From: Alphaproteobacteria bacterium | GTDB lineage: Bacteria > Pseudomonadota > Alphaproteobacteria > Rs-D84 | Direction of reading: 5' to 3' | DNA length: 64,000 bases | Assembly: GCA_017615655.1 (NCBI GenBank) | Contig: JAFZZS010000005.1 | Location: forward strand, 1,683-65,682 | Shown here: positions 872-18,029 of the stretch, piece by piece | How positions within the stretch are numbered: position 1 is the stretch's first letter | Layout of the letters: the number at the start of each line of letters is the position of its first letter | Position numbers and translations under genes: made by a program | The notes under the pieces: generated by a model | The model's database searches: none | What the model was told of the DNA's origin: nothing | The model's input: the letters and a program-made list of their open reading frames with translations, nothing else

Positions 872-1552
872 TTATTTCTTTTTTCTGGGTTCATGGCACT
901 CACCTTCACCTTCTTTGGGACAACACGCAAAATTCATTTGCGAAACTTCTTTGAATTTTTCACCTTCACAACACCCATATCGATTCGGTTTTGTCCCGTC
1001 ATCACATAACCCATTAGCGATATTTTCAGCAATCTTTCGTTCTTGTTCTGCTTGTTCGGCTGCTATTTCTTCTGGTGTTTTTACTGGTTCTGCCGGTTTT
1101 TCTTCGATAACAACTGGTTCAGCGACAACATCAGTTTCTTCTTCAACTACTGGGACATCAACGACCATCACAGGATTTACATTTTCATAATTATGAACAG
1201 GTCTACGATTAGCACGTGCCGCACATTGTGTCCGTTGACGAGACAACATAGTTTCCAATTCTGATTTTAATTCTGGATATGCTTTCACATCTTCGCGCAA
1301 TTCTTTAACTCGTTCATTTATTTCTTTACAAGTCATACGTACTGAAACTGTGCGAACTTCGTCAATTTCCATATTTTCATCATCATTCATTACATCAAAT
1401 TCAAAATCATATTCTATACTTTCAGGCTCAATAAATACTTCCTCTGCAACTTCTTCTAGCTCTGTGTTATCAGACTCTTCTTCAGCAAACGAATAACCTG
1501 AAAATACCGCGAAAACCAGTGCGACAAAAAATCCTATTATTTTTATATTCAT
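872..1552 (-). CDS. secreted acidic protein with Cys-rich C-terminus
   Basis: Signal peptide, Glu-rich body, C-terminal C..CC..CC..C cluster. Confidence 0.6.
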   Translation of the reverse strand: MNIKIIGFFVALVFAVFSGYSFAEEESDNTELEEVAEEVFIEPESIEYDFEFDVMNDDENMEIDEVRTVSVRMTCKEINERVKELREDVKAYPELKSELETMLSRQRTQCAARANRRPVHNYENVNPVMVVDVPVVEEETDVVAEPVVIEEKPAEPVKTPEEIAAEQAEQERKIAENIANGLCDDGTKPNRYGCCEGEKFKEVSQMNFACCPKEGEGECHEPRKKK

Positions 1553-1564
1553 CGTAACACCTTT

Positions 1565-2323
1565 TTATTCTTCTATGACGCGTTGCAATTCCATAATAAA
1601 ATCGATTCCTGGGTTTATAAGTTTTTCTGCCTTTTTAATATACTTTCTTGCTTCATTTTGCATTTGTAATTTTTTGTATGTCCCTACAGTATAACGCATT
1701 TCATCCTGACTTATACTATCATCGCGTACCTTTATACCATCAGCAATCTGCAATTCATCCAAGGCCATCTGTTTATACTTTTCAGAATTTTCTGGGCATC
1801 CATCTTCTGCCATCTGAGAGTACACACGTGCATTTCGCGAATGTTCCCAAGATGCAGGATTATCCCTTGTAATTAATTCAAATTTTAATTGTTTTTCAAT
1901 TACTTCGCACGGACGAATTCCTGGGACATCCGCGAAATTCTCTTCACCATATTTTACGTACAGCATCGCATCATCTAATTCACGCTCAGATTCTGCAAAA
2001 TTTGCGAATCTTTCTTTATTTTTTTCACAACCAATCTTTACCAATTTTTCGTAAATACGTGCATTATGCGCATGATCATTTTCGGTTAATAAACGCTGTA
2101 AATTTTCTTCTTTCACACGACACGGCATAGTATTTCGTTCTACAAAATTCTCTACTTTTTCGGTTGTGTCCACCATACGCGCGTGTTTATATCCCCACAA
2201 CGACACCCCCGTCATCATTCCACAGACAAAAATACCAATAAGCGCCAACCACGCAATTATTTTGTGTTTGCGTGAGTAAACATAACTTTTACTTTCTGAT
2301 GTTTTTTTTGTGGTATTTCTCAT
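1565..2323 (-). CDS. membrane-anchored hypothetical protein with duplicated Cys-containing module
   Basis: N-terminal TM helix; two copies of PC..E..L...H..NAR.Y......GC..N.E. Confidence 0.6.
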   Translation of the reverse strand: MRNTTKKTSESKSYVYSRKHKIIAWLALIGIFVCGMMTGVSLWGYKHARMVDTTEKVENFVERNTMPCRVKEENLQRLLTENDHAHNARIYEKLVKIGCEKNKERFANFAESERELDDAMLYVKYGEENFADVPGIRPCEVIEKQLKFELITRDNPASWEHSRNARVYSQMAEDGCPENSEKYKQMALDELQIADGIKVRDDSISQDEMRYTVGTYKKLQMQNEARKYIKKAEKLINPGIDFIMELQRVIEE

Positions 2324-14785: not shown

Positions 14786-16555
14786 TTAGTTCTTTTTACG
14801 AACCTGTATATGAACGTCACGCAATTGCTGTTCGGTAACCTCATTCGGACTGCCCATCAACAAATCTTGACCACGTTGGTTTGCCGGAAATGCGACAATT
14901 TCACGCAAACTATCACCGTTACCCAAAATCTCTGACACGACACGTTCTATACCAAATGCGCATCCACCATGTGGTGGCGCACCATATTGAAATGCGGTGT
15001 ATAGGCCAGAAAAGTTCTTTTCAACCGCCTCGATTGGATATCCAGCAATTTCAAAACATTTTTTCATAACATCTGGGTTATAGTTACGCAAACCACCACT
15101 GCAGATTTCAATTCCATTAAGAACCATATCAAACTGTGCCGCTTTGATTGTGAATGGATCCAGCGTAGACAATTCTTCAAGACTGGCCATTGGATATGAG
15201 AATGGGTTATGCGTAAACATCGGGGCACCGCCACGTTCTTCGTCTGGCTCAAAAAACGGGAAATTATCAACCCAACAGAACGCGAAATCACGTGGTTTCA
15301 CCAAATCTAATTCTGCGCCCAATTTATTGCGTAACTTACCCGCTGCCTTGGCCGCGATATCCCCCTTGTCACAAACAAAGAACAATGATGAATTATCCCC
15401 GGCAATCTTATGCAATTTTGCAATACGGTCCGCATCAAGTTTCTTGGCAACTGGTCCCTTTGGTTCATCTGCAAACACAATGTAAGCCAACCCACCAAGC
15501 CCTAGTTCTTTAACGGCATACTCACCTAATTTATCAAACCATGAACGAGGTTTGTCCGCACTGTTCGGTCCTGGTATTGCACGAACAACAGCACCATTTT
15601 CAATGGCATTCGCAAATATCCCGAAATCTGACCCACGGAAAATATCTGTTACATCGGAAATAAGAATAGGATTGCGCATATCTGGTTTATCTGACCCATA
15701 TTTCAACATAGCATCATCAAATGAAATATGTGGAATATCCGGGTAAACATTAGCATCTGGCGCAAATGTTTTAACCATTTCTGGAATTACTGCCTCACCC
15801 ACAGCTTGAATATCAGGCAAATCAACAAACGACATTTCCAAATCTAGTTGATAAAATTCCAGTAATCTATCCGCGCGCAAATCTTCATCACGAAAACATG
15901 GTGCAATCTGGAAATAGCGATCAAAACCAGCGACTTGCAATAATTGTTTAAACATCTGTGGTGCTTGGGGCAAAGCATAGAACTTACCATGATGCAAACG
16001 TGACGGCACCAAGAAACTGCGCGCCCCCTCGGGCGAATCGGCTGTTAATAATGGAGTTTGAAATTCTGAAAAACCCAAATCCCACATCTTATCGCGCAAC
16101 CATTTCATCATCTTGTTACGCATCAAAATATTGTAATGCAATTTTTCACGTCGTAAATCCAAGAAACGATATTTATAACGTAATTCCTCACTCGTTTCAT
16201 CATCACCAAATACCTGGAAAGGTAAAACTTCGGAATTCGTCAAAACACTCCATTTTTGAACTTGGATTTCTATTTCACCGGTAGAAATTTTGTCATTAAC
16301 TTGGGTCGCATCACGTGCAACGACTTTCCCTATGACTTGCAACACAGATTCCGGACGAACACGTTCCAAGTCTTCATTTCCACCGTCAAGAACGATTTGC
16401 GTTATTCCATAATTATCCCGTAAATCTATGAATAACAAAGATCCATGATCACGTTTACGATGAACCCAACCAGAAAGGGTTACAATTTCACCAACATTCT
16501 TGGCAGTCAATTCCCCGCACGTATGCGTTCTATATTTTGATTTTAGTGATAACAT
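14786..16555 (-). CDS. aspS: aspartate--tRNA ligase (probably non-discriminating)
   Basis: RTHTCG, RDHG, FYALPQAPQ.FKQLL, FRDEDLRADR, GAPPHGG. The His in RDHG suggests the non-discriminating type. Confidence 0.97.
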   Translation of the reverse strand: MLSLKSKYRTHTCGELTAKNVGEIVTLSGWVHRKRDHGSLLFIDLRDNYGITQIVLDGGNEDLERVRPESVLQVIGKVVARDATQVNDKISTGEIEIQVQKWSVLTNSEVLPFQVFGDDETSEELRYKYRFLDLRREKLHYNILMRNKMMKWLRDKMWDLGFSEFQTPLLTADSPEGARSFLVPSRLHHGKFYALPQAPQMFKQLLQVAGFDRYFQIAPCFRDEDLRADRLLEFYQLDLEMSFVDLPDIQAVGEAVIPEMVKTFAPDANVYPDIPHISFDDAMLKYGSDKPDMRNPILISDVTDIFRGSDFGIFANAIENGAVVRAIPGPNSADKPRSWFDKLGEYAVKELGLGGLAYIVFADEPKGPVAKKLDADRIAKLHKIAGDNSSLFFVCDKGDIAAKAAGKLRNKLGAELDLVKPRDFAFCWVDNFPFFEPDEERGGAPMFTHNPFSYPMASLEELSTLDPFTIKAAQFDMVLNGIEICSGGLRNYNPDVMKKCFEIAGYPIEAVEKNFSGLYTAFQYGAPPHGGCAFGIERVVSEILGNGDSLREIVAFPANQRGQDLLMGSPNEVTEQQLRDVHIQVRKKN

Positions 16556-16559
16556 TTCT

Positions 16560-16740
16560 GTTCCCTTTTTATTTTAGGCGCGGAAAAACATTTTGGAATC
16601 TCGGCACCAATTGGTTAAACATTTTTTCGGGGCGCATAAAACTTGGCTATGCGCGGTGCCACCCGAATTTATCACTTTTTAAATTTGAACCGCGACTCCA
16701 TGGTTGTCGGTCATATCAATGCCACAGGTTCAACAAAACT
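16560..16740 (-). promoter_or_regulatory. minimal T-box riboswitch (Asp specifier) in the aspS leader
   Basis: Stem I at 16733-16685 has a K-turn (C-AUU-GA / GA-G) and apical loop ACCGACAAC. Antiterminator is UUCGGG-UGGCACC-GCGCAUA...UAUGCGC-CCCGAA (16667-16626). Confidence 0.85.
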
Positions 16741-16746
16741 GAGACA

Positions 16747-16775
16747 ATAATAAAACTAAAATTAGCAATTTGCAA
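16747..16775 (-). promoter_or_regulatory. sigma70 promoter for the T-box-aspS transcript
   Basis: TTGCAA-17 nt-TATTAT immediately before Stem I. Confidence 0.7.
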
Positions 16776-16781
16776 GTATTA

Positions 16782-17249
16782 TCATCGTGACCATGACCAT
16801 ACCTTGTTATATATCCGCACAGTCATGTCATCAAATGGTATTGTGGCAGATGGTTGTGGCAATATCTTTGAAAATGGATTTTTATACCTTTCATCTGCGA
16901 TAATTTTTTGTTTCACGGTTGTTATAACAAATGTATCTATCACCCCAACATCATACGCTGCCTGCAAAAACACCGGTCCACCAACCAAGATTGCGTTTGG
17001 GAAATCATAATTCAAGTTTCTTAACGACATATCTCCACTGCGTTTAGCCACAAGGAACATTCTATTTTTATCCATACGCATTTTTTCTGGTAATAATCCA
17101 AAGGTATGTGGTGAACACACATATACACCGCCACATGCAAATGTTAACAATTTGAATATTTTTTTATCCAATTCTGGTGTCCAACTCATATCATCGTTTT
17201 CACCACGTGCCAGATACCCATTACAAGATTCAACGAAAATCGCTTTCAT
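16782..17249 (-). CDS. dihydrofolate reductase-like protein
   Basis: NG.LA....DMSW..ELDKKIFK.LT, ILVGG..F, D.FVIT.V pattern of the DHFR/RibD-C fold. Confidence 0.65.
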   Translation of the reverse strand: MKAIFVESCNGYLARGENDDMSWTPELDKKIFKLLTFACGGVYVCSPHTFGLLPEKMRMDKNRMFLVAKRSGDMSLRNLNYDFPNAILVGGPVFLQAAYDVGVIDTFVITTVKQKIIADERYKNPFSKILPQPSATIPFDDMTVRIYNKVWSWSR

Positions 17250-17308
17250 GTGGGTTAAAATAACATAAAAAAAATATTGTGCAAGACATTTGCACAATCT
17301 GTAAATTC

Positions 17309-17382
17309 TGGTGCCCTAAGCAAGAATCGGACTTGCGACTCGTCCTTACCAAGGACGTGTTTTACCACTAGACTATTAGGGC
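17309..17382 (-). tRNA. tRNA-Thr(GGT)
   Basis: Cloverleaf GCCCTAA...CGTCC-TTGGTAA-GGACG...TTAGGGC-ACCA. Confidence 0.95.
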
Positions 17383-17444
17383 GATTCCTAAAACATGGGC
17401 AAATTATACGGAAACACATATAAAAATCAAGTAAAAAAACCCAC

Positions 17445-18029
17445 CTATTCTTCCAATTTCACGCGCCACGATGCGTCTTCTTGAGGTTTCCGTGTTGGTG
17501 GTAAAGCAATTCCACCAAAAGGCATTTGAGCGACCAAGGTCCAACTTTCTGGCAAATTAAACATATTCCGAACCATTTTATCTATGATTGGGTTATAATG
17601 CTGTAGGTTGGCGCCTATGCTAACTGTGGCAAATGCGTTCCATATTGCAAATTGCAACATCCCGTTTGATTGCATCATCCAATCATGAAACATGTCCGCA
17701 TAAAATGGATAATTTCTTTGTGTTTCTGTAACAACAGCTGCATCATAAAAATAAAGTATCGTCCCATACCCATTTATAAAAGAGTCTATCCTAGCACGGG
17801 GAAGCTTATCACCAAGTTTCACGACAAGTTCATTATAAACCGAATTCCAAAAATTTGTATGTTTGTTATCTAACACCACTACTACACGTTGACTTTTCAT
17901 ATTAAATGCATCTGGTACGTATCGTACCGCATCATTTACAATCTCTATTATTTCATCTTTAGAAACAGGTATTTGTTTATTCAAATTATATACTGAGCGC
18001 CGTTGGCTTAGTGCCTTGATAAATTCCAT
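17445..18029 (-). CDS. nitroreductase family protein
   Basis: RRSVYNL, P.AFN..SQR, GANLQHYNP, W.L.AQMPFG. Confidence 0.9.
   Translation of the reverse strand: MEFIKALSQRRSVYNLNKQIPVSKDEIIEIVNDAVRYVPDAFNMKSQRVVVVLDNKHTNFWNSVYNELVVKLGDKLPRARIDSFINGYGTILYFYDAAVVTETQRNYPFYADMFHDWMMQSNGMLQFAIWNAFATVSIGANLQHYNPIIDKMVRNMFNLPESWTLVAQMPFGGIALPPTRKPQEDASWRVKLEE

Follow-up and report, generated by a model that had tools for sequence, protein, structure and literature searches.

The stretch of DNA analysed here, hereafter the window, comprises 64,000 nucleotides of contig JAFZZS010000005.1 from an alphaproteobacterium (assembly GCA_017615655.1). Our subject is the leader of its aspS gene, in which an earlier note, made from the letters alone, had proposed an ultra-minimal T-box riboswitch. 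A sigma-70-like promoter, the leader and the gene follow one another along the minus strand. Coordinates are those of the window, and the features are as follows.

16747–16775, minus strand: predicted sigma-70-like promoter, TTGCAA at 16775–16770, a 17-nt spacer and TATTAT at 16752–16747, with 9 of 12 matches in a consensus scan
16733–16626, minus strand: whole T-box leader as read from the sequence, made up of a K-turn hairpin, a linker and an antiterminator
16685–16733, minus strand: Stem I, 49 nt, read from the sequence
16706–16708, minus strand: specifier triplet GAC (Asp), read from the sequence, with A as the next base at 16705
16668–16684, minus strand: A-rich linker of 17 nt, AUUUAAAAAGUGAUAAA, read from the sequence and occupying the place of Stem II, IIA/B and Stem III
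16626–16667, minus strand: antiterminator or antisequestrator, the best-aligned part of the match to RF00230
16603–16609, minus strand: element E3, UGGUGCC, the 5′ arm of helix C
16577–16608, minus strand: helix C, the hairpin GGUGC...GCGCC formed by E3 with E4, found in the minimum free energy (MFE) fold of the window leader
16553–16566, minus strand: ribosome-binding region from the reading of the open reading frame (ORF), AGGGA at 16566–16562 and start AUG at 16555–16553
14786–16555, minus strand: aspS, a bacterial-type aspartyl-tRNA synthetase (AspRS) of 589 amino acids, assigned with Pfam and NCBIfam

The aspS product carries the Pfam tRNA-synt_2, OB anticodon-binding and GAD domains, and scores 714.7 bits against NCBIfam NF001750, for which the cut-off is 443. 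Stem I begins ~14 nt downstream of the promoter-like element, and elements resembling CTTGCAA-N17-TAnnAT also precede the leaders of many relatives when these are inspected by eye. It opens with a lower helix of 7 bp (UUGAACC/GGUUCAA) and a one-base bulge (U), followed by the 5-bp C-stem (GUGGC/GUCGC). The sequence signature of a K-turn comes with the AUU bulge at 16720–16718, where GA faces GA, so that a K-turn may be expected at this point. At the top a 4-bp helix (UAUG/CAUG) closes a 9-nt apical loop, ACCGACAAC, at 16711–16703, and it is this loop that contains the GAC triplet. The linker retains the AAGUG ... AA purines. In the antiterminator, helix A1 pairs UUCGGG (16667–16662) with CCCGAA (16631–16626), the T-box bulge is the 7-nt UGGCACC at 16661–16655, and helix A2 pairs GCGCAUA (16654–16648) with UAUGCGC (16638–16632). 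Further downstream, E3 is complementary to the bulge (GGCACC, perfectly) and also to the antiterminator 3′ strand (GCGCC), while E4 is the sequence GCGCC at 16581–16577, with a U run at 16588–16584 just before it. An AGG(G/U) motif lies 6–12 nt 5′ of the AUG in all the aligned relatives.

The leader thus has the sequence features by which a T-box is recognized. Helices A1 and A2 flank a bulge of 7 nt, the GA motif of a K-turn lies at the base of Stem I as a sequence motif, the specifier matches the amino acid of the gene and is followed by a purine, and the variable position of UGGN is complementary to the discriminator base (UGGC against G-CCA). It also lacks a great deal: the window leader has no Stem I platform, no Stem II, no IIA/B and no Stem III. 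The elements named in the earlier note are all present on the minus strand, with coordinates right to within a base or two. This holds for the promoter TTGCAA-N17-TATTAT, for the 49-nt Stem I with its K-turn motif, 4-bp helix and apical GAC at 16708–16706, and for an antiterminator whose UGGC matches G73, tRNA-Asp ending in G-CCA. The linker that it put at about 18 nt is there, with a length of 17 nt. It was right as well that Stem II, IIA/B and III are missing here (they are present in sister lineages, as described below) and that there is no U-tract terminator: a terminator scan finds no hairpin with a U tract between the antiterminator and the AUG.

Is this a genuine T-box? Rfam gave no match at the gathering score. 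A permissive scan gave RF00230 at 16625–16844 on the minus strand with E = 0.0045, and the 22.6 bits obtained against a gathering score of 93 count against the identification. The high-confidence part of that match, AAAGUG...AUAAAUUCGGGUGGCACCGCGC...GCGCCCCGAA, is mainly the antiterminator, and in the RF00230 alignment AAAGUG and AUAAAU flank an empty Stem III. The MFE of the leader is also unremarkable, at z = –0.33 relative to shuffled sequences. Because the Rfam score is below threshold and the folding energy is not exceptional, the case for a real element rests on the relatives.

We aligned 52 distinct leaders and scored a structure consisting of the Stem I C-stem, the upper helix, A1 and A2. 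Duplicates (L033, L040, L041, L060 and L062), loci without the motif (L029–L031) and full-length forms (L028 and L032) were dropped from this set. Paired cells amount to 93.5% and the covariation score to 0.434, where shuffles give 80.7% and 0.193. None of 500 shuffles reaches the observed percentage paired, number of cells changed on both sides or covariation score, whereas for the measures that count pairs or pair types the observed value is reached by 56 and 60 of the 500; these counts come from leaders that are kin, and are not probabilities. Both sides have changed in 11 of the 20 pairs, among them all five of the C-stem, two of the four upper-helix pairs and three of the six pairs of A1, where 94.9% of cells are paired. 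The GCGC/GCGC of A2 is invariant and therefore uninformative for covariation. When the partners are slid by 1–3 columns pairing falls to 36–56%. The sequence GGGUGGCACCGCGC is invariant across the alignment; so is the UGA on the 5′ side of the K-turn motif, and GA(G/A) is found on its 3′ side in 51 of the 52, a conservation that concerns the motif as sequence.

A covariance model constructed from the relatives' leaders, which we call R1, scores 92.2 bits on the window leader. There is no second copy of the minimal form in the 955-kb genome, the next R1 site scoring 16.3 bits. The exact 12-nt T-box core pattern occurs once in the window, and with one mismatch allowed there are three sites where 0.51 are expected from shuffles. 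We conclude that the leader is a real, conserved and structurally supported T-box of reduced architecture, and we are highly confident that it is a true T-box sensor.

The specifier is consistent with this conclusion. The consensus of the apical loop is N-C/U-Y-[G/A]AC-R-N-N, and the triplet is GAC in 39 leaders and AAC in the other 13, with no other found. The base that follows is a purine in every leader (A in 48, G in four). Alternative frames in the loop, ACA and CAA, were considered and rejected as less conserved than [G/A]AC. The host tRNA-Asp has the anticodon GUC and ends ...CCCG-CCA (G73), so that its 3′ GCCA can pair with the UGGC of the bulge. A tRNA scan of the host assembly did not find tRNA-Asn; the tRNA-Asn(GUU) of four relatives ends ...CCCGA-G-CCA. 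The neighbouring tRNA-Thr was rejected as a ligand, since it ends A-CCA and by eye is mismatched to UGGC.

Why should an aspS leader present an Asn codon? Across 41 related genomes gatB is above cut-off in 40, and a true asnS in just one. This indicates that Asn-tRNA is made by transamidation and that AspRS must charge tRNA-Asn too, in which case the GAC/AAC variation is exactly that expected of a working aspS specifier. As far as the sequences tell, the leader family reads Asp or Asn. The earlier description of an Asp T-box therefore stands for the window, with GAC before aspS, and is too narrow for the family. The checks that it had proposed gave a mixed outcome with RF00230, where there is a match at the E-value quoted above and a score far below the cut-off. 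They gave a clear one in the related metagenome-assembled genomes (MAGs), where compensatory change is seen in 11 of 20 pairs, [G/A]AC in 52 of 52 loops and the T-box core without variation.

How widespread is this leader? The host genome of 955 kb is 94.6% complete. The 32 closest public AspRS loci, at 70–93% identity, are MAGs from rumen and gut with the record names Candidatus Enterousia, Alphaproteobacteria bacterium, uncultured proteobacterium and, in one case, Rickettsiales. NCBI taxonomy places Ca. Enterousia in Alphaproteobacteria incertae sedis, and these records bear out the alphaproteobacterial host supposed at the outset. The next tier of AspRS sequences (52–57%) comes mostly from Rhodospirillales, Kiloniellales, Sphingomonadales and similar groups. 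The sequence GGTGGCACC lies ~100 nt 5′ of aspS in all 32 close relatives. It precedes none of 48 AspRS loci that are more remote; for one of these the available upstream sequence is 18 nt.

We examined 151 genomes of the order, comprising the host genome and 107 others of its genus together with further genera. With R1, 117 of the 151 have exactly one match scoring 61 bits or more, namely the host genome G000, 106 of the 107 other genomes of the genus, and all ten genomes of genera g12, g13, g14, g18 and g19. The leader is found on long contigs, including one of 445 kb and a single-contig genome of ~1 Mb, and so it is not stray Firmicute DNA. None of the 151 genomes reaches the RF00230 cut-off, the best score being 90.4 bits on a tyrS-like gene, so that standard annotation misses all of them. 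Outside the order we sampled 149 other families of the class, and a T-box of any kind was found in one genome, by R1 and RF00230 alike.

Two other kinds of T-box came to light in these surveys. The lone match among the 149 families, L152/L153 (G267:C51:5417-5583), is an aspS T-box of full length whose loop reads AAC; it scores 55.9 bits against RF00230, and its host has a 1.1-Mb genome and belongs to a different order of the same class. Within the order, L120 (G032:C19), L125 (G033:C85) and L126 (G029:C14) come from two other families and are near-canonical T-boxes with a UGGU bulge and a terminator hairpin followed by a U run, scoring up to 90.4 bits against the cut-off of 93. Judged by their first residues, the genes behind these three begin like tyrosyl-tRNA synthetases.

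In the accessible part of Wels et al. 2008 (PMC2494555) T-boxes are given for two of 125 proteobacterial genomes, Geobacter and Pelobacter, both delta-proteobacteria and upstream of leuA. A 2025 survey, in the text that is open (PMC12452182), has T-boxes restricted to Bacillota. The database TBDB applied its class II model solely to Actinobacteria and to class I matches with a truncated Stem I, according to the accessible sections of its description (PMC7778990, 10.1101/2020.06.17.157016). The bulk of its entries are from Firmicutes and actinobacterial Ile leaders, and Proteobacteria go unmentioned in the accessible portion of its main text (PMC7778990). Our literature search, which did not extend to subscription journals or supplements (the phylum tables of TBDB among them), turned up no work on an alphaproteobacterial T-box and, within the same bounds, none on a T-box that lacks both Stem II and Stem III.

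The position of the missing domains is clear from longer leaders of the same gene. In the 52 minimal leaders the C-stem and helix A1 are separated by 21–27 nt. Longer aspS leaders are found in L121 and L131 (other genera of the same family), in L122 and L123 (two other families) and in L152 (another order). All five have a short hairpin with an apical specifier, which is always AAC. After the hairpin comes GAAGAAC...UUAGAAC, then CGGG...CCCGUUA and then a further hairpin. When L152 is aligned by Rfam (at the 55.9 bits given above) its sequence fills Stem II, a IIA/B region that includes CGUUA and Stem III, and a deletion takes the place of the long part of Stem I; elements of Stem II and IIA/B can also be read in L131, L122 and L001. 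Since the sister lineages keep the missing domains, the minimal form is derived. From these sequences it arose from a leader of 'class II' design through the loss of three domains.

With respect to class I, the window leader has neither the gathering score of RF00230 nor a long Stem I with an AG bay and a distal loop. Of the arrangement in which Stem III lies between conserved purines it has kept AAGUG and AUAAA, with no stem between them; the flanking pattern is given as 5′-RRRNG-Stem III-AA-3′ in the available text of PMC7778990. With respect to class II, it has the ultrashort Stem I with an apical specifier, and has neither Stem II with an S-turn nor a IIA/B pseudoknot with an F-box. Compared with the RF00230 model as a whole it shares the K-turn motif, the specifier with its purine, the AAGUG...AA purines and GGGUGGNACCGCG with A1 and A2, despite its score of 22.6 bits against a cut-off of 93.

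Known T-boxes resemble it in part. The glyQS T-boxes of Bacillota are naturally without Stem II and IIA/B and are thus reduced as well, and they have a long Stem I, whose distal platform stacks against the elbow of the tRNA, together with Stem III and a terminator. In contrast, the aspS leader has no long Stem I platform, no Stem III and no terminator. Control of aspS by an Asn-reading element is not foreign to T-boxes: in Clostridium acetobutylicum aspS is reportedly under a T-box that reads tRNA-Asn, where Asn-tRNA is made by transamidation. The clostridial Asn T-boxes on aspS and gatCAB are said to be full-length and transcriptional and belong to Bacillota, whereas the leader described here is minimal and has no terminator. 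One of the three aspS genes of C. acetobutylicum is T-box regulated, in the part of PMC2494555 that is accessible.

The closest design is that of the actinobacterial ileS T-boxes ('class II', translational). They have in common with the aspS leader the short Stem I with an apical specifier, the canonical bulged antisequestrator and the lack of an intrinsic terminator, and control at the ribosome-binding site is likewise expected for the aspS leader. Indeed the full-length aspS and AspRS2 leaders of the host's order have the class II design. The differences are that ileS T-boxes retain Stem II, the IIA/B pseudoknot, a linker and Stem III (PMC12647780, in its accessible part), where the aspS leader has a 17-nt linker instead; that in the same text the ileS sequestrator is more stable than the antisequestrator (PMC12647780), which is not so in folds of the aspS leader; and that they belong to a different phylum and to ileS, while here the gene is an alphaproteobacterial aspS. 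Judged from the accessible literature, a T-box lacking the platform, Stem II, IIA/B and Stem III is a new reduced architecture.

We consider it probable, on the sequences, that a working T-box riboswitch of reduced design controls aspS with a translational output. The apical loop of the short K-turn hairpin would offer GAC to the anticodon of tRNA-Asp, and the UGGC of the bulge would pair with the free GCCA-3′ end of uncharged tRNA, which would thus be held by two base-paired contacts alone, ~45 nt apart in the RNA. In the absence of uncharged tRNA the GGUGCC of E3 would pair with the T-box bulge, breaking helix A1. The freed strand of E4, comprising the U run and GCGCC(C), would then pair with the Shine–Dalgarno (SD) region and the A-rich spacer. 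When uncharged tRNA occupies the bulge, E3 would go back to E4 as helix C and the ribosome-binding site would open. That the output works by this relay, which we have drawn from folding models, is a more tentative proposal than the riboswitch itself, and for the window's own sequence the case for it is weak.

The platform on which such a relay might operate has three G-rich strands (the T-box 5′ strand, the GGUGCC of E3 and the SD) and two C-rich ones (the antiterminator 3′ strand GCGCCCC, and E4, which is GCRCC(C) after the U run). For the comparison of long forms (n = 48) the short forms L025 and L061 were omitted along with the rows already dropped from the set of 52. Helix C folds in all 48, with a mean of –12.8 kcal/mol, and is not present in the short-form leaders L025, L061, L134 and L146. 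GGUGCC, whose capacity to pair with the bulge the earlier note had pointed out, is exact in 44 of the 48, although in just 24 of them does helix C engage its last C. It has been kept beyond the needs of helix C, and a second partner is thereby suggested. RNAalifold applied to the platform alignment returns just the invariant GCGCC:GGUGC helix, with no covariation, and cannot choose the partner of E3.

The short-form minimal leaders of sister genera, with no helix C, have GGUGCC, GGUGUC or GGUGC as the SD itself, directly preceding the AUG, as in GGGUGCCAAAAUG; in L162 and L164, for instance, it is GGUGCC. In six of nine short forms the MFE fold pairs this SD with the T-box bulge, stacked on A2, and is 0.9–6.5 kcal/mol more stable than the fold in which the bulge is free; of the other three leaders, one pairs its SD at another place and two show no difference. 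Compared in sequence, E3 of Enterousia (GGGUGCCAAAAUcc) looks like a former SD–AUG segment behind which E4 and a new SD have been added.

Two constrained states of the 48 long forms were compared over the segment from the linker to the AUG. In the off-like state E3 is paired upstream, with the bulge in 39 leaders, with the antiterminator 3′ strand in seven and elsewhere in two. Accessibility from the SD to the AUG is 0.77 in the on-like state (bulge free and E3 paired downstream) and 0.54 in the off-like state; it is higher in the on-like state by >0.2 in 30 of the 48, and lower by that margin in one. The duplex of E4 with the SD and A-rich spacer has a mean of –7.35 kcal/mol compared to –3.90 for shuffles, with z < –2 in 22 leaders and < –1 in 33.

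A number of results weigh against the relay, and some against the T-box as a sensor of charging. The constraints that define the two states were imposed by us. Without tRNA the on-like state is the more stable, with a mean of –30.9 kcal/mol against –28.7 for the off-like state and a difference of 2.1 ± 2.8 kcal/mol (range –3.5 to 9.2), and the unconstrained ground state combines helix C with the antiterminator; for the ileS T-box that has been studied, by contrast, the sequestrator is the more stable fold (PMC12647780, accessible part). The elements E1, E2 and E3 are invariant, so that covariation cannot separate the candidate pairings. In the window itself the E4:SD duplex does not surpass those of shuffles (z = 0.07), the off-like state at –23.6 kcal/mol is 4.2 less stable than the on-like state at –27.8, and accessibility shifts just from 0.69 to 0.53 on going from on-like to off-like. 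A plain antiterminator/sequestrator switch finds no support either: making the T-box 5′ strand unavailable in the folding of 50 leaders (L019 and L048 were omitted, an inserted repeat pushing the AUG out of the segment) moved the SD accessibility only from 0.34 to 0.28. Finally, Stem III is integral to charge sensing in the accessible parts of PMC7778990 and PMC12647780, the latter ascribing discrimination of charged tRNA to Stem III with the linker, and a leader without Stem III would have to reject charged tRNA by some other means.

Other outputs were tried and set aside. An intrinsic terminator was rejected, as the scan shows none on the stretch from the antiterminator to the AUG. A helix of the linker AGUGAUA (16669–16675) with UAUCACU in aspS codons 2–4 (16543–16551) was rejected as a general mechanism: it amounts to 7–8 bp in the window and is seen in the MFE fold of the full leader, and it beats shuffles by >2 kcal/mol in 11 of 50 leaders, mostly those of the window's own subclade. 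Nor does helix C appear to imitate the anticodon arm of tRNA-Asp, through which AspRS might regulate its own gene, as by eye there is no conserved GUC loop.

A more novel reading, which we hold less likely than not and harder to accept than the relay, is that of a natural two-contact T-box. Here the pairing of the anticodon and of the NCCA end would suffice for sensing the charge of the tRNA without an elbow platform, Stem II/IIA/B or Stem III, and the bulge would double as an anti-SD. A cis element ending in GCC(A/G) would sit in the bulge in the manner of a tRNA acceptor end, this element being the SD in the short forms and E3 in Enterousia, and uncharged tRNA would displace it. The switch would then be a direct competition for the bulge, and not a matter of a rival helix on the 3′ strand.

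The dual substrate of the enzyme raises a refinement of the working T-box riboswitch that we propose. GAC leaders could read both tRNAs, tRNA-Asp (GUC) perfectly and tRNA-Asn (GUU) through a G–U pair at the first position, so that the switch would sense how far each of the two substrates of a non-discriminating AspRS is charged. GCCA is the 3′ end of both tRNAs; in 40 of the 41 genomes no asnS was detected, and gatB was detected in as many; all five full-length aspS leaders of sister lineages carry AAC; and GAC and AAC flip among close relatives without relation to a second AspRS. On the other side, T-boxes tend to favour strict Watson–Crick pairing with the anticodon, according to the TBDB authors in the accessible text (PMC7778990), and the archaeal-type AspRS of the host has its own AAC T-box, suggesting a division of labour. 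On the sequences as they stand we think dual reading rather unlikely. The idea that the AAC triplet is tied to the presence of the archaeal-type enzyme was rejected, AAC being found in one of five genomes with it and three of 20 without it.

This second T-box of the host lies outside the window, at G000:C6:1474-1707 on the minus strand (locus L001), and scores 28.1 bits against RF00230. It precedes a gene for an archaeal-type aspartate-tRNA(Asn) ligase of 438 amino acids (NF003483, 467.5 bits with a cut-off of 353). Its Stem I is short with the loop CUAACAA (Asn), and ~130 nt separate this from the T-box; there is a region like Stem II/IIA-B with CCGUUA, and a UGGC bulge. By eye the SD AAGGAGGU can pair at seven of eight positions with ACGUCCUU, the 3′ strand of the antiterminator of this T-box. 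An archaeal-type AspRS is present in five of 25 genomes of the genus, and also in two genomes of other families in which no bacterial aspS was detected. In Rickettsiales bacterium Gsp477_bin73 (L061) two AspRS genes, apparently on opposite strands, each lie behind their own T-box, at 972–1201 (minus) and 1343–1572 (plus); one is a bacterial aspS and the other begins like an archaeal-type AspRS.

Could a true sensor have some output other than sequestration of the SD? Rho-dependent or otherwise non-canonical termination in the 190-nt leader might be involved, or mRNA stability or processing. Neither the full leader nor the window's own sequence shows a clear SD switch in thermodynamic folding, helix C has high stability and seems to be constitutive, and T-boxes of the classical terminator type precede tyrS-like genes in other families of the order. 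Yet between the antiterminator and the AUG there is no hairpin with a U tract, and the leader is by eye A/U-rich and C-poor, a composition that is not typical of Rho loading sites. Moreover the short-form relatives pair the SD directly with the T-box bulge, and about 10% of riboswitches in Pseudomonadota carry terminators in the accessible text of a survey (PMC12452182). An output of this kind is therefore unlikely.

Less likely again is that the leader is a decaying remnant of a full-length T-box, which would have lost its domains in the course of genome reduction and now be a constitutive stable 5′ structure. The host genome is small (0.95 Mb), three to four canonical domains are missing, and the predicted ground state is the on-like fold, all as decay would have it. 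A remnant would scarcely be expected as a single copy in 106 of the 107 genomes sampled from the genus, as well as in five other genera, with compensatory changes in Stem I and A1, an invariant bulge, and a triplet limited to the two codons relevant to the enzyme and followed by a purine in 52 of 52. We hold it to be improbable. That there is no T-box at all, the resemblance being due to chance or to a protein-bound K-turn hairpin beside unrelated hairpins, is scarcely credible: the sub-threshold Rfam score and ordinary MFE z-score are outweighed by an exact and invariant T-box core of 14 nt, by the rarity of the 12-nt core in the window (once exactly, and three sites against 0.51 expected with one mismatch), by the agreement of codon, discriminator base and downstream gene, and by the Rfam-aligned full-length intermediates at the same gene in sister lineages.

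The surroundings of the leader have some features of their own. A tRNA-Thr(GGU) is encoded at 17309–17382 on the minus strand, and behind it at 17298–17276 is a terminator-like hairpin with a U run, the sole terminator-like site that the scan finds in 16300–17500. This tRNA lies upstream of the aspS leader in many relatives. In some, a tRNA 3′ end or fragment ...GGGCACCA is ~10–60 nt from Stem I with no intervening promoter, and co-transcription with the tRNA is thus possible there. Between the terminator of tRNA-Thr and the aspS promoter is a possible gene, an ORF of 171 amino acids with a TTG start (16782–17297, minus strand) that is without a Pfam match and shares sequence with the terminator hairpin. 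Within helix C there is a mini-ORF of five codons (AUG UUU UUC CGC GCC UAA) at 16574–16591 on the minus strand; of two relatives inspected by eye, L050 has an AUG at a similar place and L064 has none. Between helix C and the SD, L019, L048 and L138 contain a palindromic insert of ~35 nt (AAAUCCCACUUCGC...GCUUUGUGGGAC), in two copies in L138; it has the appearance of a small mobile repeat, tolerated by the leader in this position.

T-boxes are the textbook case of one RNA reading another. Current structural work assigns affinity to the Stem I platform or to Stem II/IIA/B, and the rejection of charged tRNA to Stem III. If our reading is true, a conserved natural T-box of ~110 nt without these domains would push down the minimum of RNA known to suffice for tRNA recognition. 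Being small and tractable, it could serve structural work and the design of engineered tRNA sensors, and would test whether Stem III is required for sensing of the 3′ end. The element extends T-boxes, otherwise met almost entirely in Gram-positive bacteria, to the Alphaproteobacteria, a class in which they have been almost unknown. The steps from full-length to minimal are visible within one alphaproteobacterial order, where full-length, short and relay forms occur on one gene in related genera, and these would represent a riboswitch whittled down during genome reduction.

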